Shown here: in pieces, positions 4,210 to 59,249 of the stretch
Layout of the letters: each line of letters starts with the position of its first letter
How positions within the stretch are numbered: the first letter of the stretch is position 1
IMG/VR virus record: IMGVR_UViG_3300035182_000466
Coordinates: 64,001 to 128,000 of that record
Origin: a virus
Direction: 5' to 3' (one strand)
Length of the DNA stretch: 64,000 nucleotides
Notes under the pieces: generated by a model
Told to the model about the DNA's origin: nothing
Seen by the model: only the letters and a program-made list of their open reading frames with translations
Database searches by the model: none
Position numbers and translations under genes: made by a program

Positions 4210-4219
4210 GGATATAACA

Positions 4220-7973: not shown

Positions 7974-8000
7974 TCTAATTCAAGAAAGGAATTTAAAACA

Positions 8001-8735: not shown

Positions 8736-8793
8736 TCGCATAATAAACTAAACTACTACTTTAAAAATAAACAGGAAAAGGAGAATTAAACAA

Positions 8794-9894: not shown

Positions 9895-9927
9895 CAAATA
9901 GTAGGAACAAAACAAGGATGTATAGAG

Positions 9928-9961
9928 AAAGGGGAGAGGACATTATTCTCTCCCCTTTTTT
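9928..9961 (+). terminator. Rho-independent terminator after the capsid gene
   Basis: AAAGGGGAGAG-gacattatt-CTCTCCCCTTT hairpin running into a T tract. Confidence 0.9.
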
Positions 9962-10020
9962 AATGGCAAAATTATATGTAATTTATAATAACAAATATAT
10001 ATAAGATGAGGTGAAGAAGC

Positions 10021-10731
10021 ATGTATACTTTAGCTGGGGATCTTATTATTTTAGCTACTTCTGCTGCAAACTCCGGTGATTTAAAATCAGCGGCAAGATT
10101 ATTTCTTCAGGCTTGTGTTACATCTGATTTACCTGTGTTAATAAATAAGATTTCTAGTAACAAAGATGTAACAGCTTCTGATACTATAAGTTCTTATAAT
10201 TTTATCAATAAAAAGATAAATAAACGGTTCATCGTTGCCTTAACGGAAGAACTGGATAATACAACCCTTTTTAGTAAAAAAGAAATTATGGATGCAGTAA
10301 GAGCCATAAAATCTTCTGACACTTCTTCTAATAAAGATAAGTATTCTTTTGAAATAGTAGATAAAGAAGTTTGTCCTGAAGGATGTGATGAAACCTGTGA
10401 TTGTAATGAGGATGAGACTCAAGATGAATTTGATTTAGATGGTGCTGTTATAGAAGACGATGATATAGAGATATTAGCTTCTTCATCTACTTCTCTAGAA
10501 GAAGATATTAAAACTGCCTTAATCTCTTTAAAACTAAGATCAGATGATTGGGATGTTAAGAAGTTTATACCAATATTAATGACCATATTTCCGGATCTAG
10601 TTATAAAAGGATCATCTAATAGAGAGATAAGAAATATAGTCAATAATATTATAAACAGGTTAAAGACATTAGATAAAAACAAATTAAATGAATTACACAA
10701 TGCAGTAAAGCCGTTATTAACTCAGGAGTAA
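10021..10731 (+). CDS. hypothetical virion-associated protein
   Basis: GAGGTG RBS; 236 aa; between capsid and tail genes. Confidence 0.65.
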   Translation: MYTLAGDLIILATSAANSGDLKSAARLFLQACVTSDLPVLINKISSNKDVTASDTISSYNFINKKINKRFIVALTEELDNTTLFSKKEIMDAVRAIKSSDTSSNKDKYSFEIVDKEVCPEGCDETCDCNEDETQDEFDLDGAVIEDDDIEILASSSTSLEEDIKTALISLKLRSDDWDVKKFIPILMTIFPDLVIKGSSNREIRNIVNNIINRLKTLDKNKLNELHNAVKPLLTQE

Positions 10732-10733
10732 AT

Positions 10734-11522
10734 ATGTCAACCACTCCAGATTTTTCGGATATCTCCTTTGTTTTTGATACAGATGTTTCTAAATTTAGTG
10801 CAGGTTCTATAAATGCTATCTATGAAACTACACTATTAAGTTTAACCTTGCATGGATTAAGAGCTTCATTTAACAGGATATTACAGTGTCCTAGTCCTAT
10901 AGATTTTTCTTTTACAGACAGACTTAAAGAATTACAAGAAAAAAGAGAGTCTAATAACTTAAAGTATCCATATGCCTACATAGTATTAAACGATTTAGAT
11001 CTTTTAAAAGATCAGGCTAATACTACGGCAATGTCACATCGTGGATTAGCAGGAAGAAAAGCCTTCATAGGAGATTCAGTAGATGTAACATATGCATTTC
11101 CAATGAAGTTAAATATAACTTTGAATGTATTAGATTCAGATGTTGTAAGACTGTTAAGCTACGCACAATCCTTAATTTTGGCAGACGTAGCTAGAGCTTT
11201 TAATTTCAAAATAAATGCTTTTGATACACAAAGTATTTGTAAAGTTCAGAGATCTGGTAATATCTCTTTTCCAGAGAATCTTATATCTACTGATAACGAG
11301 CAAGACTACAACAGTGGTAAGGTATCTTTATCATTTGAAGTTCAAGGATGGATTGGATTTACTTGTTTAGTGCCTGGAGTTAAAACTATTAATTTAAGGT
11401 TCTATCAACAAGAAGTAAATTCAGATAAACGTACATTAGAACAAGCTTATATCTTAGAGTTGAAAGAGGAAGACGATGGCAAAGTCAATCTCTACAAATT
11501 TCTCCCTGCGGATAAACAATAA
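10734..11522 (+). CDS. putative neck/tail-completion protein
   Basis: Position before the sheath gene; YPYAYIVL and 'SFEVQGWI' strands typical of tail terminators (inference). Confidence 0.45.
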   Translation: MSTTPDFSDISFVFDTDVSKFSAGSINAIYETTLLSLTLHGLRASFNRILQCPSPIDFSFTDRLKELQEKRESNNLKYPYAYIVLNDLDLLKDQANTTAMSHRGLAGRKAFIGDSVDVTYAFPMKLNITLNVLDSDVVRLLSYAQSLILADVARAFNFKINAFDTQSICKVQRSGNISFPENLISTDNEQDYNSGKVSLSFEVQGWIGFTCLVPGVKTINLRFYQQEVNSDKRTLEQAYILELKEEDDGKVNLYKFLPADKQ

Positions 11523-43849: not shown

Positions 43850-46018
43850 ATGATTCCGACTAAAGCTAGCAATTGGGAATATATCTATTTAGATACTAAT
43901 ACTAACTTGTATGTTCCACATTACTATAACATAACTGATAGAGTAATGTTTGAAGATAATGAGTACATAGCTCAAGTAAGTCATTATGCTACTAGTTCTT
44001 TCACGCAAGACTACTTAAATGGATATTGGAAACGTTGGAATCTTATAAAGACTAGAGAATGGCTTCCAGGAACAATTTATGCATCAGGAGATAAAATTAA
44101 GTATGGTCATATAACATATATATGTAAATATGGTCATTTATCTCAAGACTTATTTAGTAAAGATCTTAGTGTAAATTTAGATAACTTAAACTTCGATTTT
44201 TTATATAAGAGAAATGATTATAACAAAGTTTCAAAATCTTTTCCTTGGGCAGGCATAAAAGTATATACCAAAGATGAATTAGTAATAGATAGAGATATAA
44301 CATATAAGTGTTTACAAGATCACACAGTCAACACTCTTGCTGACATATATTCAACTAGACCTTTATATGGTGTAAATTGGAAAAGCTATTGGACTTTTAC
44401 TATTGAAGAACCTAAAGATTTAAACACTCGTTGGGCGCAAGGTCGTATCTTTAATATTAATGATCTGGTAGAAAATAATGGTAAGTTATATCTTTGTAAG
44501 AGCGCCTATAATGGATTATCTCCTGAGTATATAGATAATAATGAACCTGGAATGGGTTCTACTTGGAAAGATTTTTGGGATGAATTTGTACTATGGGATG
44601 TAGAACTAACCAGATGTGATTATGTCAACTGGATGAGTGATGTACCATTTCTTCGTGATTATTTAGAAGTTATTGATCTATTGCAAATAACTAATATAGA
44701 TCATCCAATAGTCAAATTGACAAAATTGAGATCATTAGATACAGAAACAGAGCAGGAGATATTAAAACTAACCACTAGCTTTTTAGGTTTTTCTTTCCTA
44801 GCCGAGTCTTCTTTAATAGATCCATCCTCATATTATCAATACATAAATTATTTGTCTATGTATAAGAGTGAGTCTGGAACTGAATCTTACTTAAAATTTT
44901 TAAACTTTATAGTAAGACATGATTTAGATATACCTTCAAACGATACTCCTCTATCTCAGTATATAGATAAAACTACAAAAGTTCCACTTTGGAAAATTAA
45001 AGAACTATATACTCATAATTATAAATCTTTTTGGACTAAAGAAGAAGTTATTTGTAAGTTAGGACTGAGCAAAAAATACTTTAAAACTACTTTCTTTAGA
45101 TCTAATGGACAAACAGTATATAATATGTTTGAAACAGTTGAATATATGGGTTGGGTTTGGAGTAGTCTTGTTGATAATAATGAAGACTTACCTACTTTAA
45201 CTTCTCCTTATTGGACCAGAGTTTCTGCTCTACCTGAATCTGAATTTGTAGATAGTTCATTACTTTCAAATTTTGATGATAGTGAGGTTTTGTATTTAAA
45301 TTTTCCTATGACATTTAGAGGAACTTGGTTCAAGCTAGAGTCTTATTATTTGAATGATACAGTAATATATAATGGTAAAATATGGAACTGTATTAAAGCT
45401 GGTGCTAAAGGATATATACCTTATGATGGAAGTTCTTACTGGAGTAAGGTTTCAGATATAAATCTTTTTGAAGTGTATAATAGTTATAAAACATACTATG
45501 TAGATGATAAAGTAATGTACAACAATGAAATTTGGCAGTGTACTAAAGCCAGAATAAAAGGTCAAGAACCATCTGACTCCAGTAGTTCTTGGAACAAGCT
45601 CTCTGACTCCAGTTCTGTAGCTAGTTCTGAATTTAAGAATTATGGTTATTATAGAACCAATAGAGTATATTTATATAGATCTGATGATATGCGTAAGATG
45701 GGTTCTGACTTAGAAAAGTATCCTGAATATGCAGGTATAACTAAAATATTTTATGAATTATCAATTGCAGCTAAAGTAATTTATATAAAGGAGATTGGAT
45801 ATGATTATGTATTATCTAACTTACCAAGACTTGTTCAGATAAATCCAGATAATAGTGAATTTGAAGAAGCTCACTATATACCATTTATTTGTAATAAAAA
45901 AATTACATATCCTACACCTGTAAGAGTAGGCAATTGGGTACCAGATGACCTTAGATCTTGTGTAACTTGTCCACAAAAATTATTTACACCTAATATTACC
46001 GAAAGTCAACAACTGTAA
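43850..46018 (+). CDS. baseplate wedge protein (gp7/gpI-like core) decorated with ~7 CBM5/12-like aromatic repeats
   Basis: Central FLGF..YKSESGT..LNF core. Repeats W..G.IY..GD.I.Y....YIC and YY.DD.V.YN..IW.C..W. Confidence 0.65.
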   Translation: MIPTKASNWEYIYLDTNTNLYVPHYYNITDRVMFEDNEYIAQVSHYATSSFTQDYLNGYWKRWNLIKTREWLPGTIYASGDKIKYGHITYICKYGHLSQDLFSKDLSVNLDNLNFDFLYKRNDYNKVSKSFPWAGIKVYTKDELVIDRDITYKCLQDHTVNTLADIYSTRPLYGVNWKSYWTFTIEEPKDLNTRWAQGRIFNINDLVENNGKLYLCKSAYNGLSPEYIDNNEPGMGSTWKDFWDEFVLWDVELTRCDYVNWMSDVPFLRDYLEVIDLLQITNIDHPIVKLTKLRSLDTETEQEILKLTTSFLGFSFLAESSLIDPSSYYQYINYLSMYKSESGTESYLKFLNFIVRHDLDIPSNDTPLSQYIDKTTKVPLWKIKELYTHNYKSFWTKEEVICKLGLSKKYFKTTFFRSNGQTVYNMFETVEYMGWVWSSLVDNNEDLPTLTSPYWTRVSALPESEFVDSSLLSNFDDSEVLYLNFPMTFRGTWFKLESYYLNDTVIYNGKIWNCIKAGAKGYIPYDGSSYWSKVSDINLFEVYNSYKTYYVDDKVMYNNEIWQCTKARIKGQEPSDSSSSWNKLSDSSSVASSEFKNYGYYRTNRVYLYRSDDMRKMGSDLEKYPEYAGITKIFYELSIAAKVIYIKEIGYDYVLSNLPRLVQINPDNSEFEEAHYIPFICNKKITYPTPVRVGNWVPDDLRSCVTCPQKLFTPNITESQQL

Positions 46019-46019
46019 A

Positions 46020-46041
46020 TATAATATAATATAATAGGAGG
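46020..46041 (+). promoter_or_regulatory. three overlapping TATAAT hexamers plus AGGAGG RBS before the fibre/radical SAM operon
   Basis: Sequence tATAATATAATATAATAGGAGG. Promoter role is inferred; the background is AT-rich. Confidence 0.35.
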
Positions 46042-46048
46042 TTTTACT

Positions 46049-48613
46049 ATGGCTACAATGCAAATAACTAAAGTCGGTTATGAGCAAATAACCGATGCAC
46101 TACAAAGTGGTTATACTTTAAAGATTACTAAAGTTAAATTTGGTACTGGATCAGATTATGTTCCAACAGCAGGAGATGTTGAACTTCATGGTCATATTCT
46201 ATATGAAGGCCCAATTAGTAATGTGGATGTAGTAAATGATGATATAATTGATTTTCTTTGTATTTGCCCTGAGAACTTAGGTGTAGACACAGTCACTATT
46301 GGTGAAGTTGGATTATATATAGAAAATACTGATGGAACCGATACTCTATTTGCATTAGCTTGTTATCCTTATCCTTTCAGTAAAGCACCAAATATGCGGT
46401 ATAAAACACACTGCTTAGTTTTGAATCCATATATAAGCAATGCAGTAGATTTAACTTTAACTTGGACTATGAGTTTACCACGAGTTAATTATTATGGAGA
46501 TTTACCTAATCCGGAAAGAACTGGAGATAATGCTTATATAGTAAACCACGGATTTACAGATAGTGGTGTTTTAAAACCTTCTTTAGTTACACGATACGCA
46601 ATGTCTGATACAGGCCCACTAGCGTGGGGGCTCTTAAATGGAGATTTATATTATGATGGCTATGTTACTCCAGTTGAAGGGGATCCAGCCAGTTTTAAAT
46701 TAGCTGGTTTACCATTGTCTAACTTTCCTGCCATAAATATTAAATTTGCTTTTGTTTATGTTTGTGAAGGTACAGGAAGAACTCAGTGTAGAGCATTATC
46801 TTATAATGCATCACTAGATTGCTTTACTACTTTGTATGAAGACTTTTCCTTAACTGTTAAGGGATCTGGAACTCCTTCCTATGAAGGAGCTTGTAATACA
46901 GGTAACACTGCAGGTACTGTGTTGCATATAACTAATCTAGATTCAAGCTCAAGAGTATTGATTTGGACAGCGGTAAGGATGGAAGCTACTGGTCTTGTTT
47001 TTAGAGGTCGTTGGGATGCAGCAGCAGGATATCCATCTAGTCCTATTCCAGGATCATACTGGGTAGTATCTGGTAATGGTATTATAAATGGAACCTGTTA
47101 TCAAGTTGGAGACTGGATGGTATTTTCTGGTGATGAACAGTGGGATAAGATTGATAACACTGAACTACCTTACTTACTATATCGTGGTGATTGGGATGCT
47201 TCTACCGGTCAAGCTCCACCGCCACAACCAATACAATATTATTGGCAGAATATTCGTCAAGGACATTATTGGGTAATAAGTACTGCTGGAGTTATAGCAG
47301 GAGTATGGTTTGATGTTGATGATTGGATAGTATGGAATGGAACAAAGTGGCAAAAAGTAGATAATAAAGGTGGTCTAAAATTTAGAGGGTATCATGCTAT
47401 AGTATCTGATAATCATGTGCCTACTGTTTTAACTGATGGTGACTATTGGATTGTGTCCCAAAAAGGAACTATTAATGGTATTCGTTATGATGTTAAAGAT
47501 ATCCTAGTATGGACAGGTTCAACCTTTATGCGGTTGATAAATCAAGAAGGCTTAGTTTATCAAGGTCTTTATGACCCAAGCATAACTGGTGAATATCCAG
47601 TGCCTTTCAAATCTGGTGATCTTTGGATTGTTAAAAAGAATGGTGAAGTAACTAATCAAGATGATCCTACAGTTAAAGATAACTTATATGTAGATGATTT
47701 TTTAGTAGCTATTCCAACTACTAGTACTACTTTTACCTGTGATACTAATAGTAATAGTACCATTTTAAATACTACTGGTAATATGCGTTGGAAAGTAATT
47801 TCAGCAGGAGGATTAACCTATCGTGGTACTCATGATGCATCTACTGGTATTATGCCAATTCCCCTGCATAAAGGAGACTATTGGGTTATTACTAATCCAG
47901 GTTATTTAAATGGTGTATATTATGAAACAAATGATTGGATTACATTTAATGGATCTTCTTTTAATAAAGTTAGTAATAGAGAAGGTCTTAAATATCAAGG
48001 ACTGTGGGAAATTGGTACCAACGGATCTGTACCTCCAACTCATCCAGTAGAAGGTGACTTTTGGATTGTTAGCTCTCCTGGATCTGTACAAGGCACTGGA
48101 TATAGTATAGGTGATTGGTTAGTTTGGACAAATTCTGGATGGACTAACGTTGATAATAGACCTGGATTCTATTATAGAGGAGACTGGAATCCAACTTCAG
48201 GAACAAATCCAGTTGCATTAAAAGAAGGCGATTTGTATCGTATTAACGCTGCTGGTACATTCAATGGCGAGCATGTAGCTCCTGGAGACTTCATTGTTTG
48301 GACAACAGCAGGATGGCTCCTGATCTTAGGAACTCTTGACCGTATAGATATTCCTAGATATAACATAACCACTAATGATTACATGCTCCGTGAGTATGAA
48401 TATGCAGATGCTTCTACTGGTAAAGTATATAACTCAGCTAAAAACCTTAAGATAGGATTTGCATTAGAGATTTTATTTAAAGATAGAACTAATCCAGTGT
48501 ATGTACCATATCTTGAACAATTGAACGAATTAGAGTTTTGTGGTTGTACTTGTACTTGTACTTGCCAATGTACGGCACCTTGTAACTGTTGTAAAGGCGC
48601 AGGTCCAGTTTAA
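46049..48613 (+). CDS. tail fibre: collar-type N-domain, 7 ~55-aa repeats, Cys-rich C-terminal tail
   Basis: MQITKVG..KITKVKFGTG..IGEVGLY..LFALA baseplate-attachment domain. Repeats (Y/F)RG.WD..GD(Y/F)W.V..G..GD.LVW.G..W.KVDN; ends CGCTCTCTCQCTAPCNCCKGAGPV. Confidence 0.85.
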   Translation: MATMQITKVGYEQITDALQSGYTLKITKVKFGTGSDYVPTAGDVELHGHILYEGPISNVDVVNDDIIDFLCICPENLGVDTVTIGEVGLYIENTDGTDTLFALACYPYPFSKAPNMRYKTHCLVLNPYISNAVDLTLTWTMSLPRVNYYGDLPNPERTGDNAYIVNHGFTDSGVLKPSLVTRYAMSDTGPLAWGLLNGDLYYDGYVTPVEGDPASFKLAGLPLSNFPAINIKFAFVYVCEGTGRTQCRALSYNASLDCFTTLYEDFSLTVKGSGTPSYEGACNTGNTAGTVLHITNLDSSSRVLIWTAVRMEATGLVFRGRWDAAAGYPSSPIPGSYWVVSGNGIINGTCYQVGDWMVFSGDEQWDKIDNTELPYLLYRGDWDASTGQAPPPQPIQYYWQNIRQGHYWVISTAGVIAGVWFDVDDWIVWNGTKWQKVDNKGGLKFRGYHAIVSDNHVPTVLTDGDYWIVSQKGTINGIRYDVKDILVWTGSTFMRLINQEGLVYQGLYDPSITGEYPVPFKSGDLWIVKKNGEVTNQDDPTVKDNLYVDDFLVAIPTTSTTFTCDTNSNSTILNTTGNMRWKVISAGGLTYRGTHDASTGIMPIPLHKGDYWVITNPGYLNGVYYETNDWITFNGSSFNKVSNREGLKYQGLWEIGTNGSVPPTHPVEGDFWIVSSPGSVQGTGYSIGDWLVWTNSGWTNVDNRPGFYYRGDWNPTSGTNPVALKEGDLYRINAAGTFNGEHVAPGDFIVWTTAGWLLILGTLDRIDIPRYNITTNDYMLREYEYADASTGKVYNSAKNLKIGFALEILFKDRTNPVYVPYLEQLNELEFCGCTCTCTCQCTAPCNCCKGAGPV

Positions 48614-48630
48614 ATTAAAGTGAGGATAAT

Positions 48631-49368
48631 ATGTCAAGAGTATATTTTTGTGTTAAAAACAGTTATTCTTCTACCACTCCTAAACCTGCGAATATTACGT
48701 CTGTAGGAGATGTAACTATAACAGTATCTAATTCAAACATAATAATAAATCAACCCGATGTTCTTATAGACTCAGATAGAGATATACATTTAATAGTTGC
48801 TTCAGATTTTACATTTAATACTCCTGGTCTAGTTCAGACTTCGCATGTTTTTGGTTCAAAGGATTATTTTGATAAAGTACAGGTTTATTATTATAATAAT
48901 ACCTATTTCTATTATTTTGAAAGTGTAGAACATTACTGTGCCGTATATGAGCGTCACTTTTCTACAGTTTATTTTAGACATGATCCTACTAAAATATTCT
49001 GTGAAGTAACATCTAATGCGATAGCTATTCAAGGAGCAGGTAAATTTGTTTTTCTAATCAGAGGTCTTTTTGTTTCAGAAAATGTAGTTACCTTGAAAAT
49101 GCAAGATGAAGAAAAAACTGAAATACCAATATCTTTAATATCAGATAGTAATACACAAACTACGTTAAACTCTATAAATACTTCTTTCAATACGTTAGAA
49201 AATGGTACTATAGTAGATTCCTTTATTCAAAGTCGTGGATTCTTTTTAGAGCTAGACCCCGATGTTTTAAAAGGTGAAGGTTATCTAATAATAGAGAATG
49301 AATTACCTACAAGTTTTGCAATAACCGGTGTATCTAAGACTAGAAGTAAAATGATGTTCTTTATTTAA
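48631..49368 (+). CDS. hypothetical protein (fibre chaperone or rSAM accessory candidate)
   Basis: GAGG RBS; 245 aa, beta-rich; between the fibre and rSAM genes. Confidence 0.6.
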   Translation: MSRVYFCVKNSYSSTTPKPANITSVGDVTITVSNSNIIINQPDVLIDSDRDIHLIVASDFTFNTPGLVQTSHVFGSKDYFDKVQVYYYNNTYFYYFESVEHYCAVYERHFSTVYFRHDPTKIFCEVTSNAIAIQGAGKFVFLIRGLFVSENVVTLKMQDEEKTEIPISLISDSNTQTTLNSINTSFNTLENGTIVDSFIQSRGFFLELDPDVLKGEGYLIIENELPTSFAITGVSKTRSKMMFFI

Positions 49369-49402
49369 AATAATAACTGATTACTGGTAAAGGAAAAATA
49401 AA

Positions 49403-50767
49403 ATGATAACTAAACATGATTTAGAAGATGATATTTTAACCTTTTCTAAAGATAGGTCTTTTAGGTATTTTAAAACAAAAGGCGGATTATTAGTAAAGAG
49501 CTTTCTTAATACAAATAGATACTATATAGAAAGTGCTGATGATGATTTACCTATTGCCTCTGTTTGTTTTGGAGAAGAAATATTTACTAATGATGAATTA
49601 GATCAACTATATGATATTATAAATCAAGATAAAAAACAGTTACGCCAAGATATATTTAGTTTAGGAATATTCAATTCTACCTGTAATGTTAGTTGTGAAT
49701 ATTGTACTAATGGCGATAGAACTAAAATGCTCCAGAAGCTACCAAGTATAGAACAACTACAAGAGGTCTTTAATACTTATAACATCAAATATGTAAGTGT
49801 AGCTGGAGGAGAACCATTAGTAGAATGGCCCCAACTAAAAAATATTCTGACATTTTTAGATGAACAACCTGGTATAAAAACAATGGAAATCTTATCAAAT
49901 GGAAGATTACTTAAGCCTGAGATACTTGAGTTTATATCTAGTTTAACACGAGACGTTAAGTTATTTTTAACTGTTACTACAAAAGAAGACTCAAAAGATC
50001 ACATGAATATACAAGAGCTTTATGAGTTATATCCGAAGTTGGTAGGACACCCTGTTGAAATAAATATTGTTATAGACCACTATAAATTTGATGTAGATAG
50101 ATTTTTATCTTTAATTGTAGAAATGGTTAAAAAAGGAAATTTTGGAGTAACCTTAAATGCAATACGCAGAGAAGACGCAACAGAAGAAGGACTATTGCAA
50201 TTAATAAATAATGTAAAAGCAATGATCCGAAGTCCTCATATTCGTGATTTGTCTTGCCCCGAAGACGATAATCCAACAACACCTTTTTATTATGCAACCG
50301 GAAGTTGTAGTAGTGGGATGATTTGTGCTTCATCTAAAGGTTATTCCTTTTGTTTGGCCTCTATGCCACAATATATAGAACAAACTGTAGAAGGTGTAAA
50401 GAATATAAGATATATGCAGTCTAAGCATGGATGTGAATCTTGTGATGCTTATTTTGATGATGTCTTATGTAAGAATAATATTTTCTCTGGTAGTTGTTAT
50501 AAACTAGAAAGATTCAACTGTTTAACTTGTCCTAATTTATGCCAATGCCAATATCAGAAGTGTTATTATCTTTCAGTGAAAAAAATAACAAATCCAGTTG
50601 CAGATTATAATAGAGACTTAAGATGTATAGCTTATGTTTTAATTTTCAATCTTATTGACTATATAAAACATCAACATATAGATTATTCTGATAGTAATAG
50701 TGTGTATAAAATAGACTCAAATAAAATACCGGAGAAATTAGTAAATGAATATTTTTCTACTAAATAA
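49403..50767 (+). CDS. radical SAM protein with Cys-rich (SPASM-like) C-terminus
   Basis: CNVSCEYC, AGGEPL, LSNGRLL; C-terminal CSSGMIC..FC..CESC..C..C..CLTCPNLCQCQYQKC..C. Confidence 0.9.
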   Translation: MITKHDLEDDILTFSKDRSFRYFKTKGGLLVKSFLNTNRYYIESADDDLPIASVCFGEEIFTNDELDQLYDIINQDKKQLRQDIFSLGIFNSTCNVSCEYCTNGDRTKMLQKLPSIEQLQEVFNTYNIKYVSVAGGEPLVEWPQLKNILTFLDEQPGIKTMEILSNGRLLKPEILEFISSLTRDVKLFLTVTTKEDSKDHMNIQELYELYPKLVGHPVEINIVIDHYKFDVDRFLSLIVEMVKKGNFGVTLNAIRREDATEEGLLQLINNVKAMIRSPHIRDLSCPEDDNPTTPFYYATGSCSSGMICASSKGYSFCLASMPQYIEQTVEGVKNIRYMQSKHGCESCDAYFDDVLCKNNIFSGSCYKLERFNCLTCPNLCQCQYQKCYYLSVKKITNPVADYNRDLRCIAYVLIFNLIDYIKHQHIDYSDSNSVYKIDSNKIPEKLVNEYFSTK

Positions 50768-51863
50768 ACATCACACTTGCTACCTATCAAATTCTGAGTT
50801 AAACTTTCTTAGGTTCTGTGCAGAGAAGCTTAAAGGTCTTGAATATGTAGAACAACCAGAGCTAGCAGATTTAATTGTTTATTCCGGATGTTCTGTTTCT
50901 GACGATTATATCATGAGGAATAATAAAGAGCTGGATAAACTTATAGCGCTATATCCAGAAAAGAAATTTATGTTATTTGGATGTGCTGCACCTTATGGTG
51001 AGCACTCAAATGTAATTAGTATTGTACATCTAGAACATTCTAAATTAGATGATCTCTTTAATTTACCTTCTGGTTCAATAAAGCAACTTCACTCTTATTA
51101 TTTCACCTATGAGAAAATTTTTGAAGATCAGAAAGCTATTTTTATATCTAGTGGTTGTGCTAGTAATTGTACTTATTGTAATATTAAGTTATCTAGACCT
51201 AAATTAAAATCAATGCCTTTAGAAGATATTCTTGAAAGAGTGAATCAGTTTTATGCAACTAATCATCATTATGTCTTATGCTCAGATGACTGTGGTTCAT
51301 ATGGATTAGATATAGGGACTAATTTTGCAGTTTTACTAGAAACTTTAGTTTTAAATTTTCCTGATATACTTATAAATATAAAGTGGGTTAATCCACAATG
51401 GTTTATAAAGTATTATGATGTTATAAAGAAATATGTGGATACAGGTAATGTTATAGGTATAGAATGTCCTATTCAGTCAGGATCAGATAGAATATTAAAG
51501 TTAATGAATCGTCCATATACTGTAGAAGAAGTCATTGATAAATGGACCAAGATAAAAGGAAAGTTACTATCTTCTAAAGGTACAGTCATAGTAAACTTTC
51601 CTGGAGAAACTTGGGAAGAATTTTTAGCTTCTATGTCTTTACGTAAACATTATGAAATTTTTATAGTATATATTTTCAAACTAAACAAAAATACAGCTAG
51701 TGCAAATCTTCCAGATAGACGAACAGAGGAGGATGCTAAGAGACGACTTGAATATCTAAAAGAACATTATCCAGACATATACTATGGTGGAGATCTTATA
51801 GATAATAACTTAGACCGCTGTATAGACAAACCTTATATGGTAGATAACTTAGAATATGATTGA
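50745..51863 (+). CDS. MiaB/RimO-like methylthiotransferase-family radical SAM protein lacking TRAM domain
   Basis: N-domain Cys triad (HTC, ADLIVYSGCSV, FGCA); GCASNCTYC; PIQSGSDRILKLMNRPY; VNFPGETWEEF; only 372 aa. Confidence 0.85.
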   Translation: MNIFLLNKHHTCYLSNSELNFLRFCAEKLKGLEYVEQPELADLIVYSGCSVSDDYIMRNNKELDKLIALYPEKKFMLFGCAAPYGEHSNVISIVHLEHSKLDDLFNLPSGSIKQLHSYYFTYEKIFEDQKAIFISSGCASNCTYCNIKLSRPKLKSMPLEDILERVNQFYATNHHYVLCSDDCGSYGLDIGTNFAVLLETLVLNFPDILINIKWVNPQWFIKYYDVIKKYVDTGNVIGIECPIQSGSDRILKLMNRPYTVEEVIDKWTKIKGKLLSSKGTVIVNFPGETWEEFLASMSLRKHYEIFIVYIFKLNKNTASANLPDRRTEEDAKRRLEYLKEHYPDIYYGGDLIDNNLDRCIDKPYMVDNLEYD

Positions 51864-53076
51864 TACTTTATCCATAAAAATGGTAGATATTCCAGGTGTT
51901 CTTGAATATCATTCTTCGACGCATTCTTTCAATTATTGTCCTGAAGTTATACAGACTGAAAGAATAAAATTTGAAGATAGAAATGAAATACAACAAGACT
52001 TCTCGAAAGAATATCTTAATAAACAAAAAGAAGAATCAGATAAAGTACCAATTATAGGTACAGTAACCATTACTAATGAATGTAACATGGGATGTTCTTT
52101 TTGTTATGCTCATAAAAATGAGCAACTAGGAAAAATAAATTTAGACTATCTTATACGATTAAAGGAAAAGCTTCCTAAAGAATGTTTTGATCATCTTATT
52201 TTATCTGGTGGTGAACCATTATTATATTTTGATACGGTTAAGTCAGTAAGAAAGTTATACTCAAAGGTTGTAATATATACTAATGGTAGTCTTTTAACAG
52301 AAGATATTATTAAATGGTGTATAGATACAAAGACATGGTTATACATAACGTTAGATTTTGATATTCCAGATTTTATTGGTCATCACTCTAGTCCTGTAAG
52401 AGATTTACTAGAAAAGTACATTTATAAGTATCCTAAATTGTTAGATATAATATCTTTTGGGACAGTTCTTCCAATAGAAGAACTTATAAATTTGCCTAAG
52501 CTTAGGCAACAACAAAAACCTTTTGAGTCAGGTATATGGAGACTATACAATTTTTTAGATCCAAAAGATAAAAATTATGTAGTTAGTTCTGAAGGTTTTG
52601 ATCTTGAAATGAGTAATATAGAAACTGGTTCTATTAGTCTTCAAGAATCAATATTTTTTAGATATTTGAACTATGTACAAACAGCTTCTACTAATGAATA
52701 CAACTATAGTTGTTGTGGAAATTCATTAGCCCTAACACCCAGTGGAAACTTAACTATCTGTAATGAGTTATCAAGTTTACCTGAGTCTCGTTTAAAAAAT
52801 ACAAAAGTATGGTCAATAGATTCATTAGATTTAGAAGAAGTTAAACAAGAACAATTAAGAGTAGGTAAATACGGTATTAAAAGTTTTTGTGGTTCATGTA
52901 TTATGAAATATTTTTGTTCAGGATTGTGTTGGCAGAAAAAGGGTAATCTTAAACATCAATGTCAAATGGCACGCTTCGGAATAGCATATAGTATGTATTA
53001 TAAGTTTAACTATTTGAATACTAATTCAATACTAAATCCGAATACAAAGTTATCAGAAATCTTAAGAGATAGGTAA
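51856..53076 (+). CDS. radical SAM/SPASM domain protein
   Basis: CNMGCSFC, SGGEPLL, YTNGSLL; SPASM-type SCC..LTPSGNLTIC..CGSC..YFCSGLC..C. Confidence 0.92.
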   Translation: MIDTLSIKMVDIPGVLEYHSSTHSFNYCPEVIQTERIKFEDRNEIQQDFSKEYLNKQKEESDKVPIIGTVTITNECNMGCSFCYAHKNEQLGKINLDYLIRLKEKLPKECFDHLILSGGEPLLYFDTVKSVRKLYSKVVIYTNGSLLTEDIIKWCIDTKTWLYITLDFDIPDFIGHHSSPVRDLLEKYIYKYPKLLDIISFGTVLPIEELINLPKLRQQQKPFESGIWRLYNFLDPKDKNYVVSSEGFDLEMSNIETGSISLQESIFFRYLNYVQTASTNEYNYSCCGNSLALTPSGNLTICNELSSLPESRLKNTKVWSIDSLDLEEVKQEQLRVGKYGIKSFCGSCIMKYFCSGLCWQKKGNLKHQCQMARFGIAYSMYYKFNYLNTNSILNPNTKLSEILRDR

Positions 53077-53083
53077 TATATTT

Positions 53084-54352
53084 ATGTCTTCATCAAAAAT
53101 TTTAGTAAATGCTATTGGTATAAAAGATAATTCTACGGGATTTGCTATCTTATATGTTCCAGAATTTCATTTATTTTTAAAGTCTGAAATACGTCAAAAT
53201 AAACCTGTAGAATTTTATACTAATTATTCAATGCCTGTACTTTGTACTCATCAAAATGAGATATATGAAGAGTACAATAAACTAGAAACTCAGGCAGTAA
53301 ATAAAATTCCTAACATAGGTTATGTAATAGTTAATAATGTCTGTAATATGAATTGTACCTTTTGTTATGCTGCGGCTAATACTAATCATAAAAGAGTAGA
53401 CATTTCTGATCTAGAGCACCTGTCTAAGATATTGCCCAAAAATTCGTTTAGAAAAGTAATTATTTCTGGAGGAGAACCTTTATTAGACTTTGATCTTGTA
53501 AAACAAATAAGAACATTTTTTGATGAAATGACTATAAACTCTAATGGAATGCTTCTTACAGAAGATATAGCTAATTGGTTAGTAGAAACAAAGACAAAAA
53601 TGTATATCGCCTTAGATTATGAGATTAAAGATTTTGAAGGACATGACTTTAATGCTAAAGCGCATGTAGAAAGTATAATCGCTAAAGTTCCAGAAGTTCT
53701 TCCATTTATAGAAGTCGCTGTAACTTACCCTAGTGATAAACTAGATGAGTTAAAAGATATTAGAACTCAAAATCTTCCATTTGAAAAAGAACTGACCCAC
53801 GATTTTAATTACATTAAAGGAAAGGATCCTTTAGTTTTAACTAAATCTATATTTGAAAAAGAAATAGAAAGAATAGAAAGAGATGAAATTTCATTACAAG
53901 AATCTATCTTTCATAAACCTCTTAAATATATACGAAATACTTATAACTGGAGACTTAATATAGAGTCATGCTCTCCAGCCGTACATTTAAATCATCTTGG
54001 AGATTTACATCTATGTCAGGTTAGAGCCTCCAATACAAATAGACCTGAAGAGTATGAGAAAGATGTTATCTGTAAAGCTAAAGATTTTAATTTAGACATA
54101 TATAGACAAAGATCCAACAAAGATAAAAAGATTGGAGTTTGCACAATAGATAAAAATTGTAACTGTAGATGGTTTTGTGGAAATATATGTTGGGCTAATA
54201 TAAAACATAATAAACATAATTGTGAAGTTCTTAAATACTCGTTATTCTATTCTATGTATTTAGTTCATAATTATCTTTCTATGGAAGGTTTTAGTTTATT
54301 AAATTTAGATAGATTTTTCAATTCAAAACTAAAAGGATTGAACTATGTCTGA
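53084..54352 (+). CDS. radical SAM/SPASM domain protein (paralog of 51856)
   Basis: CNMNCTFC, SGGEPLL, NSNGMLL; SC..LNHLGDLHLC..C..CNCRWFCGNIC..C; shares ISLQESIF with 51856. Confidence 0.92.
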   Translation: MSSSKILVNAIGIKDNSTGFAILYVPEFHLFLKSEIRQNKPVEFYTNYSMPVLCTHQNEIYEEYNKLETQAVNKIPNIGYVIVNNVCNMNCTFCYAAANTNHKRVDISDLEHLSKILPKNSFRKVIISGGEPLLDFDLVKQIRTFFDEMTINSNGMLLTEDIANWLVETKTKMYIALDYEIKDFEGHDFNAKAHVESIIAKVPEVLPFIEVAVTYPSDKLDELKDIRTQNLPFEKELTHDFNYIKGKDPLVLTKSIFEKEIERIERDEISLQESIFHKPLKYIRNTYNWRLNIESCSPAVHLNHLGDLHLCQVRASNTNRPEEYEKDVICKAKDFNLDIYRQRSNKDKKIGVCTIDKNCNCRWFCGNICWANIKHNKHNCEVLKYSLFYSMYLVHNYLSMEGFSLLNLDRFFNSKLKGLNYV

Positions 54353-57300
54353 TATTCGTCCTGTACTAAGTATTTTAGAAAAACCTGAAACCTTAAATAA
54401 AAGTAAGCAATGTTCTTTTACCTTTAAGTCATCTAAACCTTTGAAATATGTCTGGTGTGTTTTGGATAATAATCCAAGTTTTAAACTATATCCATCAAAA
54501 GATTATCCAGAAGGTGATATTGCTATTTTATCTTTAACCTATGATGATTCTGATGATAGAGTTAAACACGAGCTAACAGTTCAAGCAGTAGATACAGATG
54601 ATAATCTTGAGATATATAAAAATGTAATAGTTTGGACTAATGTTTTTATACCTATACAGTCTACATTAGTAGAACATCCTTCTGATCCAGATTTAGACTT
54701 AGCAAGTTATTTTCTAATTACTACAAATAAAACTGTATTGGGAGTAAGATATTCCTTAAATAATAATCCTTATGTTTTTGTCAAACCTTCAGATAGAGTT
54801 TCTGATAACAAGACAGTAGATATTTCATTATATGATCTATCAGAAAGATCATATACGATAAGATATAAAGCTGTAGATGAATTTGGATTCGAAGAATTAA
54901 CTGAACATGAATTTACTTGGAATAAAGTAGTACGTCCTATTACTACAATAGTAAATATATCTGAAACAAACGATCCAAAAGTAATAGAGTTATCTGTAAA
55001 TAAACAAGTTGCATATATTGAAAGTTATCATTATTACGGTGAAGATAAAGAATCTTTTAGCGAAATTTGTTCAGAAGTAAACTCCTCTGGACAAGAAAGA
55101 TTCTACTTTAGAATACCACAACCTTTTGAAGGTAAAAATGAAGTACAATTTACAGCTGTAGATACTAAAGGTTACAGAGAATTAGAACCCGTTGTTTATA
55201 CTTGGTATGAAGATAAAACAGTTTTATATTCTACCTTTATTGAGACACCAGCAAAAGTATCACAGATTACAGATTCTAAATTTACTATTGTAACTAATAA
55301 ACCAGTCGATCATATAGAATATACTTTAGACGATCAACCGGAGAATAAAATATACCCTTGGCCTGAAGATGTAACTAATAAAACGTTCAAGATAACATTT
55401 ACATCTATGCAAGAAGGGTTTCATAATCTATCTATAAGAGCAGTAGATGGGTCTGGATATTTGGAGGATGAGGCACGTGTTTATTCATGGAAAGTAGAAG
55501 ATCCACCAGTTTCAAATATAATAAAGTACCCAATTAGTCCTAGTACAGAATCAACTGCTACCTTTAAAATTGTTGCTAACAAACCATTGAGTCATGCATT
55601 ATACTCGTTGAACGGATCGTCTTGGAAAGTATTTAATATAGATCCTAATGACTCAACTAAGACAAGTGCAAGTATAACAATATCTAATTTAAAAAATGGC
55701 GATTATACTATACAGATAAAAGCAGTAGATTTATTTGGAGCTGTGGAGAGAGAATCAACTGAAAAATCTTGGAGTGTAGAAGGTATTGAAGTTGTTTATC
55801 CAAATGTAGGATATGGTTCATCTAAAACAATCTTACCAGATGGAGTTACAGAAGCATTTAGATTTCACCCATCTCCAGGTGTATATTTTCCAGAGAGCTT
55901 ACTTGAGTTACCATCTGTTAGATCAATAATATATCCAGATACATTTATTGTAACATTTCCCGAAAAGTTTTCTAATCAAACTTCAGGAGTATTTACATTT
56001 TCATCTACTAGAATTGGAGCAACCTACCAGATTAGTTTAGATGGTTCTGAGTGGAAAGATGTAGGTAATCTATATAAATTTAATGATCTAGTTTTAGGCT
56101 CTCATTTACTTAAAGTTAGATCTATAGATAGAGCTGGGAATATTGATCCATCACCAGCAGAGTATTCTTGGAGTATAGACACTAAAAAACCAGTTTCTAC
56201 CTTTGTAGAAACTCCACCTAATATATCTATCTCACAGGAAGCATCTATAAGAATAGAGGTAGATAAACCAGTTCAGTACGAGTTGTACTCTTTAGATAAT
56301 TCTATATGGTTAAAGTCTTATCCTTTAGAGTCAGATCCAGATAATAGAACGATATTAGTAGAATTATATAATCTAAATTCTGGACCGCATAATTTTAGAG
56401 TAAAGGCTTGTGATATATATGGTAATATAGAAGTACCAGAAAAGTATTATAACTGGTTTGTAAATACAGATAGGACTCCACCTGATACTATTATAACTAC
56501 TATAATTCCTGAATATACTAATAAAGTTAACTGGGATATAGACTTTATGTCACCTAAACTTGGTTGCACTTTTGAAGTAGCTTTAGACGTAACATTATCT
56601 AATACAGATATACGATATGGTGAATGGGTGTCTGCGAAAAGTCCTTATATTCTTTCTGATTTAGCTGATGGACATTATGTGATAAAGGTTAGAGCGATTG
56701 ATCTATTTGGAGATATAGATGTTACACCTGCTCAATTAGCTTGGAATATAGATACAGTTCCACCAAAATTATTTTTTGTTACAAAGCCGACAGGACCAAA
56801 TGGAACATTTGAAGTTGTCTCAAATAAAACAAATTGCAGCTATCATTTTATTTATAATGATAGTGATACAGAAAACGTAGTATACAGTCCTATCATACCA
56901 TATAGCAATTTACCTGAAGGAGTTAATATTGTAAAAATTTATGCTAAAGATATGGCAGGAAATTCTGGAGATGTTATTTCTTATACTTGGACTATTGATT
57001 CAGTAACACCTAATACCTTTATTGATACTTATCCAATAGATAATAGCTCAAGTGGGCAGTTTACTTATCACGCAGATAAACCTAATTGTGTCTTTGAAGT
57101 TACTTTGGACTCAGTTACAAGTTTTAAAGAAAGTCCTTTTACTTTCACTAATTTATCTTCAGGTTTTCATACCTTTTCAGTTAGAGCAAAGGACTTAAAT
57201 GGAAATTTTGATGTTAATCCCAAAACATATACTTGGGAAGTAAAGATTTTAAGTACGATAACTGTTACAGTTTTTAATGCAATTAATGCTAAAGCTATCT

Positions 57301-57920
57301 CAGGTGCACTTGTATCTATAGACACTGGAGAATCTAGTAATACAAATACTTCTGGTGAAGCTAAGTTTACTAGTATAAAGGCAGGACTTAGAACAGTCAC
57401 AATCGCTAAAGATCAATTTGTTACAGAAACCGTAACAGTTACTTTAACTGAAGCTGCGATAGCAATAACTGTTTTATTATCGCCCTCTCTATGGGATGGT
57501 GCCTATCGTGCTGTATTACGTTGGGGTTACAAACCTTCTGACTTAGATATCCATATGTATGTACCATCAGGATCAACTTACATAGACCGTAACTGGGCTA
57601 ATAAAGGAAGTGAAATTTCCACACCATCTGGATGGCTAGACATAGATGATACTGATGGTTATGGTCCAGAAACTGTTACTGCTAAAACTCCAAATATAGG
57701 TATTTATCAAATATGGGTGTACAATTATTCTCAAACACCAGATATAACATCTTCAAATGCTGAAGTTAGTATATACTCAGACCAAGGAAAACAGCGTACT
57801 TATAAAGTACCTTTAAACTTAGGTACAGGATATAAAGCTTGGCATATATGTGATATCGACTGTGTAAACAAAATTATAACTGATGTAAATTTATTAAGAA
57901 CAAATCTACCAAATATATAG
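54345..57920 (+). CDS. large Ig-like repeat protein (~10 repeats) with carboxypeptidase-regulatory-like and YfaP/DUF2135-like C-terminal domains
   Basis: Repeats PDT.I..P..F..S..Y.LD..L..G.H...V.A.D..GN....Y.W. Then VFNAINAKAISGALVSI and LRWG..DLDIH..LDIDDTDGYGPET. Confidence 0.75.
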   Translation: MSDIRPVLSILEKPETLNKSKQCSFTFKSSKPLKYVWCVLDNNPSFKLYPSKDYPEGDIAILSLTYDDSDDRVKHELTVQAVDTDDNLEIYKNVIVWTNVFIPIQSTLVEHPSDPDLDLASYFLITTNKTVLGVRYSLNNNPYVFVKPSDRVSDNKTVDISLYDLSERSYTIRYKAVDEFGFEELTEHEFTWNKVVRPITTIVNISETNDPKVIELSVNKQVAYIESYHYYGEDKESFSEICSEVNSSGQERFYFRIPQPFEGKNEVQFTAVDTKGYRELEPVVYTWYEDKTVLYSTFIETPAKVSQITDSKFTIVTNKPVDHIEYTLDDQPENKIYPWPEDVTNKTFKITFTSMQEGFHNLSIRAVDGSGYLEDEARVYSWKVEDPPVSNIIKYPISPSTESTATFKIVANKPLSHALYSLNGSSWKVFNIDPNDSTKTSASITISNLKNGDYTIQIKAVDLFGAVERESTEKSWSVEGIEVVYPNVGYGSSKTILPDGVTEAFRFHPSPGVYFPESLLELPSVRSIIYPDTFIVTFPEKFSNQTSGVFTFSSTRIGATYQISLDGSEWKDVGNLYKFNDLVLGSHLLKVRSIDRAGNIDPSPAEYSWSIDTKKPVSTFVETPPNISISQEASIRIEVDKPVQYELYSLDNSIWLKSYPLESDPDNRTILVELYNLNSGPHNFRVKACDIYGNIEVPEKYYNWFVNTDRTPPDTIITTIIPEYTNKVNWDIDFMSPKLGCTFEVALDVTLSNTDIRYGEWVSAKSPYILSDLADGHYVIKVRAIDLFGDIDVTPAQLAWNIDTVPPKLFFVTKPTGPNGTFEVVSNKTNCSYHFIYNDSDTENVVYSPIIPYSNLPEGVNIVKIYAKDMAGNSGDVISYTWTIDSVTPNTFIDTYPIDNSSSGQFTYHADKPNCVFEVTLDSVTSFKESPFTFTNLSSGFHTFSVRAKDLNGNFDVNPKTYTWEVKILSTITVTVFNAINAKAISGALVSIDTGESSNTNTSGEAKFTSIKAGLRTVTIAKDQFVTETVTVTLTEAAIAITVLLSPSLWDGAYRAVLRWGYKPSDLDIHMYVPSGSTYIDRNWANKGSEISTPSGWLDIDDTDGYGPETVTAKTPNIGIYQIWVYNYSQTPDITSSNAEVSIYSDQGKQRTYKVPLNLGTGYKAWHICDIDCVNKIITDVNLLRTNLPNI

Positions 57921-57940
57921 TAGTATAATACGAGGACTTT

Positions 57941-58159
57941 ATGACAACTATTTTAGATCCTTATTACACTTTATTAAGTCAATATTACAATAATTATGAT
58001 CTATTCATATCTAAGTGTAAAGATAGTGGTTTAACAGTCTTAACCATAGTAGAGTTTAAAGATAAAATAAATACTTTATTTCCTAAAACTAGTAACGTTC
58101 ATAGAACACCTGTTACTCGTTCTCCACGAAGTTGCTGTGGAGGTGGAGCATCTCGTTGA
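57941..58159 (+). CDS. 72-aa peptide ending RSCCGGGASR
   Basis: GAGGA RBS; ORF in track. Confidence 0.65.
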   Translation: MTTILDPYYTLLSQYYNNYDLFISKCKDSGLTVLTIVEFKDKINTLFPKTSNVHRTPVTRSPRSCCGGGASR

Positions 58160-58202
58160 ACTATGTAATTTATTATGTAGTTAATATATTAACAAAAGGA
58201 GA

Positions 58203-58586
58203 ATGGAAATGGAAGACAATACTACTAAAACTGAAGAAAACGTAACTGCAAGTGAGGAAAAGCCAAGTGAGGAAAAGAAACAACAACCATTTATTAACCA
58301 TAATACTTTTGCATTAGCTTTTGTTATTATAACGGTAGTATATATTACACTAGTGTTTAAGTATTTTAATCCTACTACTGGTCCTGAGTACGGAACTGCA
58401 CTTAGAATAAGTGCAAGTTCTATGCAGTCTACAGCTTTATGGTTTATCTCTGCATTAGGTTTTGTGATTACTCTAAATGGTCTTAAATTCGATGTTTATA
58501 AAGAAATAGTAGATGAGCATAATATAGCATTAGCTCTTTTAGTTGGTTTTGCATGGTTAGCTCTTGCTTTAGTTATAGCACTATAA
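58203..58586 (+). CDS. three-TM membrane protein (DUF350-like; holin candidate)
   Basis: Three hydrophobic helices; FDVYKEIVDEHNIALALLVG; adjacent to the hydrolase gene. Confidence 0.6.
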   Translation: MEMEDNTTKTEENVTASEEKPSEEKKQQPFINHNTFALAFVIITVVYITLVFKYFNPTTGPEYGTALRISASSMQSTALWFISALGFVITLNGLKFDVYKEIVDEHNIALALLVGFAWLALALVIAL

Positions 58587-58598
58587 CTGGAATTAAAG

Positions 58599-59249
58599 AT
58601 GAAGAAGTTAATCTTGTTAATTTTAACTTTCTTGTTTTTATTTTCAGTACCTAACGTAGTATTTTCTGGACCTTATGATCTAGAGGTCTTAAAGAAAGCA
58701 GAATCTTACTTATATGTAAGAGAGCTTAATCCTATTAATGGTAATAGAAGTCCAGAGATAGATATGTGGCTTAAGTATGTAGGGCTACCACCTGGATTAT
58801 CTTATTGTGTTACTTTCAATGTCTATTGTGTTGGTAGTGTCTATGAAGCACATGGCAAAAGAAATCCTTTACCAAAAATTGGAAGAGTATCAACATTGCT
58901 AAAAATAGTAAAAAAAGATAAGTATGCTTTTACTGTAGTACCTGCAAAAGATGTAGAATATGGTTCGTATATTCTAAAACCTGGGATGATAGCTATTTGG
59001 TCTAACAATAAAAAATTAGATGGTTCTGGTTTAGATAAGTATGATTGGGCCGGTCATGCAGAGTTTGTAACAAGTCCGCTGGTTAAATCTAAATTTGGTT
59101 CTATTGGGGCTAACACTATAGGTGTAGATGACATACGTTCACAAAGAGAGCAAGCTAAGACTGGACCTGTAGGTGGAGTTTATAGAAAAAGTAGAAACAT
59201 AAGTAAACTTAAATCTTTTAATACAGAAGCATTTATTAAAATAAATTAA
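58599..59249 (+). CDS. signal-peptide-bearing CHAP-like peptidoglycan hydrolase (endolysin candidate)
   Basis: MKKLILLILTFLFLFS signal; LYVRE..NRSPEID..GLSYCVTF (Cys), PGMIAIW, GHAEFV (His), SIGANT. Confidence 0.7.
   Translation: MKKLILLILTFLFLFSVPNVVFSGPYDLEVLKKAESYLYVRELNPINGNRSPEIDMWLKYVGLPPGLSYCVTFNVYCVGSVYEAHGKRNPLPKIGRVSTLLKIVKKDKYAFTVVPAKDVEYGSYILKPGMIAIWSNNKKLDGSGLDKYDWAGHAEFVTSPLVKSKFGSIGANTIGVDDIRSQREQAKTGPVGGVYRKSRNISKLKSFNTEAFIKIN

Follow-up and report, generated by a model that had tools for sequence, protein, structure and literature searches.

A cysteine-rich C-terminal tail on a phage tail fibre, linked to radical-SAM genes, as a candidate RiPP-like core on a virion protein

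Why should a phage tail fibre end in a dense run of cysteines, and what purpose do the radical S-adenosylmethionine (radical-SAM) enzymes encoded just behind it serve? The question is raised by a 64,000-nucleotide stretch (hereafter the window) of the IMG/VR virus record IMGVR_UViG_3300035182_000466, comprising positions 64,001–128,000 of a 170,061 bp record with about 32–33% GC, where the 854-residue product of a tail fibre gene (46049–48613) carries nine cysteines in an 18-residue segment near its C-terminus. The answer we favour, with slightly better than even confidence, is that this tail resembles the core of a ribosomally synthesized peptide with post-translational modifications (RiPP), that it is kept on a virion protein, and that it is modified by the neighbouring radical-SAM enzymes, most likely through Cys-to-Thr thioether cross-links. 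Unless otherwise noted, coordinates are window positions on the + strand, on which all long open reading frames (ORFs) of the window lie.

The fibre gene, identified as an ORF and terminated by a stop codon at 48611–48613, encodes an N-terminal tail-collar-fibre attachment domain, Trp-rich internal repeats that extend to about residue 755, a conserved C-terminal module and the Cys tail. The N-terminus matches PF12571 just under the Pfam cut-off (22.6 bits, 1e-4), and the protein is matched by the PHROG tail-fibre families 1162, 3737 and 1780. Its identity as a tail-collar fibre is indicated by the attachment domain and by its place in a run of baseplate and fibre genes. The fibre gene belongs to a myovirus tail module whose other genes include those for a tail sheath, a tape-measure/lysin-like protein and a baseplate wedge (phrog_219, 1.5e-38). 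The translated C-terminus reads ...YLEQLNELEF-CGCTCTCTCQCTAPCNCC-KGAGPV, followed by the stop. The Cys run covers residues 831–848 (48539–48592), and six of its cysteines (831, 833, 835, 837, 839 and 841) alternate strictly with other residues. Part of this ladder is encoded by three copies of the hexamer TGTACT, read directly at 48545–48562, which specify CTCTCT. Based on its composition and on a motif shared by four lineages (see below), the segment comprising CGCTCTCTCQCTAPCNCC and KGAGPV (48539–48610) is the proposed core.

Such a composition is not expected by chance. With the Cys content of the long ORFs of the genome as background (1.25%), the probability of at least nine cysteines in one 18-residue segment is ∼3e-13, which corresponds to ∼1.6e-8 expected occurrences over the ∼48,000 ORF residues of the 170-kb genome. 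The remainder of the fibre contains 10 cysteines in 830 residues. The tail is the most Cys-dense stretch among the long ORFs of the genome, and comparable stretches inside genes are found only in two neighbouring radical-SAM proteins. Translation and chance estimate thus bear out the nine cysteines in 18 residues, the alternation of six of them and the hexamer repeat that a preliminary description of this DNA had reported. A Pfam scan of the fibre revealed no metal-binding family, an NCBIfam scan of residues 755–854 returned no match of any kind, and an Atlas lookup with the C-terminal 100 residues gave only scores below 0.8.

An exhaustive phmmer search of 1.84 billion proteins with fibre residues 755–854 identified only two matches that align to the C-terminal end. 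One is P0128 (4e-11), an orthologous fibre of 650 residues ending in ...GEYCSCTCTCTGPCNCCDGSGPI; the other is P0131 (8e-7), a protein of 407 residues with an N-terminus unrelated to that of the window fibre and the C-terminus ...IEYCSCTCTCECTCTCPSPCECCNGSGPI. A locus scan added a fibre of 720 residues from L014, which ends in ...VQFCSCTCTCTCTCPCTCQFYSPHSCCQGMM and is matched by a hidden Markov model (HMM) of the C-terminal region at 8.5e-22. The tail is therefore seen in four lineages (the window phage, L009, L010 and L014) with GC contents of 26–44%. The last ∼90 residues, with 35–44% identity, are the only part common to the four fibres (alignment A6), and the N-terminal ∼440 residues of the window fibre are 48–57% identical to the fibres of L009 and of another relative, L001. 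The extreme C-terminus of all four fibres carries the motif [F/Y]-C-x-C-T-C-T-C...C-C-x-G, and three of the four retain a terminal PC[N/E]CCxG[A/S]GP[I/V]. The number of alternating cysteines is 4, 6, 7 or 8 depending on the lineage, and the total of tail cysteines is 7, 9, 10 or 10. What had been described as a loose linker of ∼60 residues in front of the Cys run is instead a non-repeat module of ∼75 residues (approximately residues 757–830), conserved at 35–44% identity across four otherwise different fibres. Phmmer, the alignments and the HMM place it at residues ∼755–830 (48311–48538). The homologous tails are encoded by mixed TGT/TGC and ACT/ACA/ACC/ACG codons, and these synonymous differences at Cys and Thr between lineages argue for selection on the peptide rather than on the DNA repeat.

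Outside these lineages the tail was seldom encountered. The INPHARED phage collection contains no match to the gene block by megablast or to the fibre by tblastn, and a word-indexed protein search with residues 700–854 recovered only the fibre itself. Scans with the tail alignment yielded only L009 from the JGI metagenomes, only L014 from IMG/VR and nothing from the GTDB genomes. This narrow tail family may thus be rare.

The genes downstream of the fibre are strictly linked to the tail. The window fibre is followed by a protein of 245 residues (48631–49368), radical-SAM enzyme A (454 residues, 49403–50767), a homologue of the MiaB/RimO family of methylthiotransferases (372 residues, 50745–51863), the radical-SAM/SPASM enzymes B (406 residues, 51856–53076) and C (422 residues, 53084–54352), and an immunoglobulin (Ig)-like/Y_Y_Y repeat protein (1191 residues, 54345–57920). 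The tail precedes the enzymes by 0.8–3.2 kb and shares their strand, an arrangement kept in the four lineages with some variation in gene order. In L009, the RimO-like gene starts 2 nucleotides past the fibre stop codon and is followed by a protein of 233 residues, enzymes A and B, and the Ig-like protein. The order in L010 to L013 is a protein of 241 residues, the RimO-like enzyme, A, B and C, and in L014 it is a protein of 250 residues, a divergent radical-SAM enzyme and enzyme B. Thus, enzyme B is found downstream of the tail in all four lineages, and the ∼240-residue protein, enzyme A and the RimO-like enzyme are kept in three. Enzyme C is present in the window phage and in L010 and absent from L009. 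A jumbo-phage relative, L001, shows collinearity with the window to the left and right of this region, and its fibre is orthologous at the N-terminus (57% identity). The C-terminus of that fibre is different, and L001 contains no ORF with a CxxxCxxC motif and nothing matching the block from approximately fibre residue 480 to position 58159. Since four lineages with the tail have the enzymes and the collinear L001 has neither, tail and enzymes are gained or lost together as a unit of ∼10.5 kb. All fibre homologues that keep the radical-SAM cluster also keep the tail, as the preliminary description had expected, and the alignment of homologues it had proposed shows a conserved motif of variable length.

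Enzyme B, the one enzyme common to the four tail lineages, has the features of a radical-SAM/SPASM maturase. An alignment of five sequences (A3) shows conservation of the radical-SAM triad (Cys76, Cys80 and Cys83), of a Cx14C element (with Gx4C) and of a Cx3Cx5Cx3C...C arrangement, from which enzyme C, a paralogue of B with 35% identity (BLASTP and alignment), lacks one cysteine. PHROG 1802 matches B at 9e-18. The closest structural match of its AlphaFold2 model (predicted local distance difference test, pLDDT, 73.5) is CteB (PDB 5wgg_A), with a Z-score of 20.4 and a root-mean-square deviation (rmsd) of 4.6 Å for 346 residues (model residues 1–387). The model combines the CxxxCxxC core with C-terminal SPASM cysteines (a SPASM domain has about seven Cys and two auxiliary clusters) and follows CteB through the SPASM region. 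With regard to a PqqD-like RiPP recognition element, its N-terminal ∼65 residues align with CteB from residue 1, although this segment is short and of mixed model confidence. ChlB (Z 19.0), anSME (Z 17.9) and TigE (Z 17.4) are the runners-up. Scores against curated models are low: 37 bits for the SCIFF maturase TIGR03974 (cut-off 425) and 35 bits for PapB NF047865 (cut-off 340), with A and C likewise low against the NCBIfam cut-offs. The window enzymes match the PapB model at only ∼1e-7 to 1e-9. An alignment of three SPASM-type enzymes found almost no relatives outside the window phage among 5.8 billion proteins, and IMG/VR locus scans with enzyme B or with the 245-residue protein as single proteins found nothing.

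Enzyme A has a radical-SAM domain (PF04055, 7e-10) with the CxxxCxxC motif and at least 10 conserved C-terminal cysteines. Its orthologues in L009 and L010 are 31–34% identical, and its nearest sequence matches in the PDB, which cover the core only, are viperin-like enzymes, YydG/EpeE and MoaA. The 372-residue enzyme is recognized by TIGR00089, PF00919 and PF04055; its score for TIGR00089 (1.5e-43, 149 bits) is below the 251-bit cut-off. The Pfam scan detected no TRAM domain (PF01938) in it, and proteins of this family are 335–372 residues long. The best PDB match of the family profile is RimO (4jc0, 5e-33), covering residues 10–352 of the 438 in the chain and stopping before TRAM. Three N-terminal cysteines, the CxxxCxxC motif and QSGS..LKLMNR are kept in all three orthologues. 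These TRAM-less relatives of MiaB and RimO suggest an uncharacterized branch of peptide- or protein-modifying methylthiotransferases. The closest relatives of the 372-residue enzyme (P0005 and P0011, 32–34% identity) lie in cellular clusters of 6–11 radical-SAM genes, one of which also contains YcaO, HxsD and B12-binding radical-SAM genes; these contexts are not related to translation.

Tails with CxC ladders beside radical-SAM genes recur more widely in phages. Generic patterns derived from the alignment of enzymes B and C retrieved 80 IMG/VR loci, which fall into 28 groups at 60% identity of the radical-SAM enzyme. ORFs on the same strand that end in CxC ladders were found in 8 of these groups, compared with none of the 80 radical-SAM loci retrieved in the same way from 185,579 prokaryotic genomes. 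The ladders are of the types CNCNCNCDC..DD, CACACNC, NCNCKCDCAC and CTCTC, fused to tail proteins of 230–350 residues in some groups and carried on proteins of ∼130 residues in others. For one large group with CNCNCDC...DD tails, the best NCBIfam match of the enzyme is the ranthipeptide maturase PapB (1.7e-31). In a prophage-like locus, L041 (its positions 4970–5953 and 9148–9883), the ladder genes are enclosed by the tape measure, by fibre genes and by two radical-SAM genes of PHROG 1802, and PapB is the best NCBIfam match of the enzyme.

Several individual loci from these searches deserve mention. Many uncultured phages and prophages among the IMG/VR loci L018–L066, L075 and L085–L090 encode one to three CxC-ladder proteins in the tail-fibre module, a few kb from PHROG-1802 radical-SAM genes; examples of their ends are ...SQCNCNCNCDCSDDSGGG, (CQx)n...NCNCDCNCNCSDDS and ...NCNCNCACACNC. 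When IMG/VR was scanned for DNA that encodes CTCTCTC, simple repeats and matches in the wrong frame dominated, and a single real case emerged, L171 (IMGVR_UViG_3300029286_003688, minus strand, ∼2898–10788). Its protein of 194 residues ends in ...HIVCCECECTCTCTCTCTCTCTCTCTEQCCSECDCGD, with nine CT units in mixed codons, and is encoded after a GpJ-like tip protein and before radical-SAM and B12-binding radical-SAM enzymes. A weak match to the MiaB HMM at this locus, considered as a methylthiotransferase, proved to be the B12-binding enzyme. Among cultured phages, Achromobacter phage JWF (L094) and Ralstonia phage RSP15 (L095) have tail-fibre genes that are immediately followed by a related radical-SAM gene, and lack a long Cys ladder; a side tail fibre fragment of RSP15 ends in ...NTNCQCGN. 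Both phages could serve as laboratory models.

How might the tail and the enzymes work together? We infer from their linkage that the last ∼24 residues of the fibre are a substrate, a core that would remain on the structural protein of the virion. The co-transcribed radical-SAM enzymes would act on it late in infection of an anaerobic host. CteB joins Cys to Thr, and by analogy Thr is the likely acceptor here; the CteB-like enzymes B and C would most likely form bonds between Cys sulfurs and carbon atoms of nearby residues, Thr or others, and so convert the ladder into a knot stapled by thioethers that neither redox conditions nor proteases affect. Additional changes may come from enzyme A and the RimO-like enzyme; examples are epimerization or a further link, and methylthiolation or different sulfur chemistry. 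With the attachment domain at the N-terminus, the knot would come to lie distally, where the fibre faces the receptor. The phage sequences come from metagenomes of sediment and microbial mat. These habitats could suit oxygen-sensitive enzymes, and under anoxic, reducing conditions the distal fibre end might plausibly profit from a covalent staple that reduction cannot open. The role of the ∼75 residues in front of the ladder would be either to offer the tail to the enzymes or to fold into a tip. The preliminary description regarded this region as a leader-like recognition element for a Cys-rich core. That idea gains from the fact that the shared C-terminal module always occurs with radical-SAM/SPASM genes and that both are absent from L001; a recognition role for the module, as opposed to a folded tip domain, is conjectural.

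A number of observations weigh against a thioether-modified core. The connection between tail and enzymes is, at the sequence level, one of gene linkage. Every enzyme scores far below all curated NCBIfam cut-offs, so the chemistry cannot be read from homology, and anSME, ChlB and TigE fit the fold of enzyme B almost as well as CteB does. Unlike classical RiPP clusters, the cassette encodes no protease or exporter, as Pfam, PHROG and NCBIfam scans of 46049–57920 detected no peptidase or transporter domain. The candidate substrate is a fibre of 854 residues rather than a short precursor with a cleaved leader, and the enzymes could in truth act on the ∼240-residue protein or on the Ig-like protein instead. 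Not all of the cassette is obligatory, since the RimO-like enzyme and a clear enzyme A are missing from L014. Finally, strict CxC spacing is also typical of metal-thiolate sites. On the other side, a Cys-rich C-terminal segment is encoded beside a SPASM enzyme of CteB-like fold in four lineages.

The spacing of the ladder leads to the alternative of a metal-thiolate or iron-sulfur tip, in which the alternating cysteines of three tails in a trimeric fibre bind Zn, Cu, Fe or iron-sulfur clusters, and the radical-SAM enzymes serve another purpose or only assist cluster loading. CxC spacing places all thiols on one face of a strand, as is typical of metallothionein-like sites, and the tail sits at the distal end of the fibre. 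The failure of the fibre to match any Pfam or NCBIfam metal-binding family counts against this proposal, although it is compatible with metal binding. The proposal also leaves unexplained the strict co-inheritance of the tail with three to four radical-SAM enzymes resembling peptide maturases in four lineages, the joint absence of both from L001 and the wider association of CxC tails with phage radical-SAM genes. Neither would metal binding need the conserved Thr at alternate positions. We consider it unlikely.

The enzymes could also act on the tail with a different chemistry, such as conversion of Cys to formylglycine (as by anSME), epimerization, methylthiolation alone, or formation of C-C or C-O links. 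The proximity of anSME, ChlB and TigE to CteB in the structural comparison, the epimerase YydG/EpeE among the weak matches of enzyme A and the presence of a RimO-like enzyme in the cassette are all consistent with this. Nevertheless, sacti- and ranthipeptide systems are recognized by the pairing of a Cys-rich substrate and a SPASM maturase, the tail lacks the C/S-x-P/A-x-R motif recognized by anSME, and the ladder is without the aromatic residues needed for cyclophanes; we regard such chemistry as rather unlikely. An ordinary inter-chain disulfide knot or a cleaved C-terminal assembly handle, with the enzymes as unrelated cargo acting for instance on the 245-residue or the Ig-like protein, seems very unlikely to us. 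Many fibres do carry C-terminal assembly domains that are removed, and the 245-residue gene occupies the position of a fibre chaperone. Yet neither the fibre nor the cassette contains a peptidase domain in the scans described above, disulfides would be unstable in sediment and mat, which are likely reducing, and the linkage of tail and enzymes in four lineages, with their joint absence from L001, argues against this reading as well.

The hexamer repeat had also suggested that the number of cysteines could expand and contract. The Cys number does differ between lineages, but the mixed codons of the homologues and the uniformity of the tail among contigs of the window phage and of the L010 phage argue against a hexamer-driven mechanism. 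Of eight contigs that carry enzyme A, two independently assembled ones of the window phage (L007 and L008) match the window without a difference over as much as 13.4 kb, tail included. In consensus contigs of four sequencing runs on sediment and microbial mat (2020; the source sample may be among them), the tail is free of insertions and deletions, although rare variants would be invisible in contigs. The tails of the L010 phage are identical in four contigs. Judged by these sequences, change in Cys number looks like slow evolutionary variation rather than a fast switch. A phage of the L010 type with 26% GC (L013) occurs in the same series of mat and sediment samples as the window phage; it carries its own Cys-tailed fibre and four radical-SAM genes, and its DNA matches the window only in short stretches of the enzyme genes.

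The other products of the block are less readily interpreted. The 245-residue protein is β-rich and has weak homologues at the same position in L009 (233 residues) and L010 (241 residues), with 21–24% identity by BLASTP (E ∼1e-4); an HMM built from the copies matches only these loci. Pfam, PHROG and NCBIfam gave no match and Atlas no usable lead, and its AlphaFold2 model (pLDDT 55) is too poor for a structure search. Possible roles are those of a fibre chaperone, an adhesin or an accessory factor in maturation. The Ig-like protein, assigned by Pfam, matches a partial ORF of L009 (BLASTP, 2e-20). It is not a core part of the system, since the enzymes of L009 are followed by a homologue and those of L010 are not. 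Promoter and terminator scans over 45500–58700 were at chance level only.

Further genes lie around the block. Upstream of the fibre, a protein of 722 residues (43850–46018) contains two CBM_5_12 modules of the chitin-binding type and may be a second receptor-binding protein. Behind the Ig-like gene, an ORF of 72 residues (57941–58159) ends in ...RSPRSCCGGGASR, in which a CC-G-G motif resembles the CCKGAG of the fibre. This ORF, with its RSCCGGGASR end, was not counted among the parts: L010 contains nothing that corresponds to it, and the L009 sequence stops short of this position. A gene for an NAD-dependent DNA ligase is located beyond the block, at 60016. A fifth radical-SAM gene, an open frame of 333 residues, is located outside the window on the minus strand (G000:C1:149687-150049).

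To our knowledge, the formation of thioethers by radical-SAM enzymes has so far been described for small antimicrobial peptides and for very few proteins, among them QhpC and CrpA. Literature searches found no publication on radical-SAM, thioether or maturase modification of phage fibres and no report of a methylthiotransferase in a RiPP pathway. We tentatively propose, at somewhat less than even confidence, that the ∼90-residue Cys-Thr ladder tip and its radical-SAM pathway form a portable host-range module of phages from anoxic habitats, which covalently rebuilds the receptor-binding tip of the fibre. It would be a class of structural-protein modification in viruses for which our searches gave no published report, and would include the first methylthiotransferase-type enzyme of a RiPP-like pathway. 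If so, viruses use RiPP chemistry to build their host-recognition apparatus, and a redox-proof substitute for disulfides would be a plausible reason for its occurrence in sediment, mat and gut phages. The enzymology would be extended by a RimO-like enzyme that functions in the pathway without the usual substrate-binding domain. The system is also relevant to the engineering of stable phage receptor-binding proteins and to RiPP genome mining, since current miners search for short precursors and would overlook systems of this kind.

Known systems resemble the phage locus in different respects. The fibre tips of T4 gp37 and gp12 have His-x-His metal sites, and they share with the phage tail the alternation of potential metal ligands near the distal end of a trimeric fibre; the phage tail differs in using Cys rather than His, in its position at the very C-terminus and in its linkage to enzymes. 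RimO, the methylthiotransferase of an Asp in ribosomal protein S12, is the family member that acts on a protein. The 372-residue enzyme shares its UPF0004 domain with three cysteines and its radical-SAM core (PDB 4JC0), but lacks TRAM and is below the TIGR00089 family cut-off. The SPASM enzymes of PapB/PapA (freyrasin), of other ranthipeptides and of QhpD/QhpC attach Cys to carbons in the side chains of Asp, Asn or Glu, whereas the spacers of the window tail are Thr, Gly and Gln rather than Asp or Asn. The best counterpart in fold is CteB/CteA (SCIFF, thermocellin; PDB 5WGG/5WHY). Enzyme B has the same radical-SAM core, SPASM domain and N-terminal domain, and both substrates are Cys-rich at the C-terminal end and encoded beside the enzyme, with Thr as the conserved spacer in the phage tail. 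In contrast, enzyme B is only 14–15% identical to CteB in sequence, the phage tail is the end of an 854-residue fibre rather than a peptide of ∼45 residues and matches no NCBIfam precursor model, and the phage cassette has three further radical-SAM enzymes.

The nearest counterpart in substrate is CrpC/CrpA of the methanogen Methanococcus voltae, in which a SPASM enzyme installs ranthionine cross-links on a Cys-repeat protein (PMC13692751, published in 2026). As in the phage, the substrate is protein-sized, with a conserved N-terminal part and C-terminal Cys repeats, the radical-SAM/SPASM enzyme is encoded adjacent to it, and the product stays a protein (PMC13692751). CrpA differs in being an archaeal cellular protein with 17-residue repeats and C-x-x-Q/D motifs, encoded in a cluster with a single radical-SAM enzyme, and that report does not mention phages (PMC13692751). 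The phage counterpart is a strict CxC ladder with Thr spacers, carried on a tail fibre. CrpC/CrpA thus provides a precedent for thioethers on a protein-sized Cys-repeat substrate (PMC13692751).

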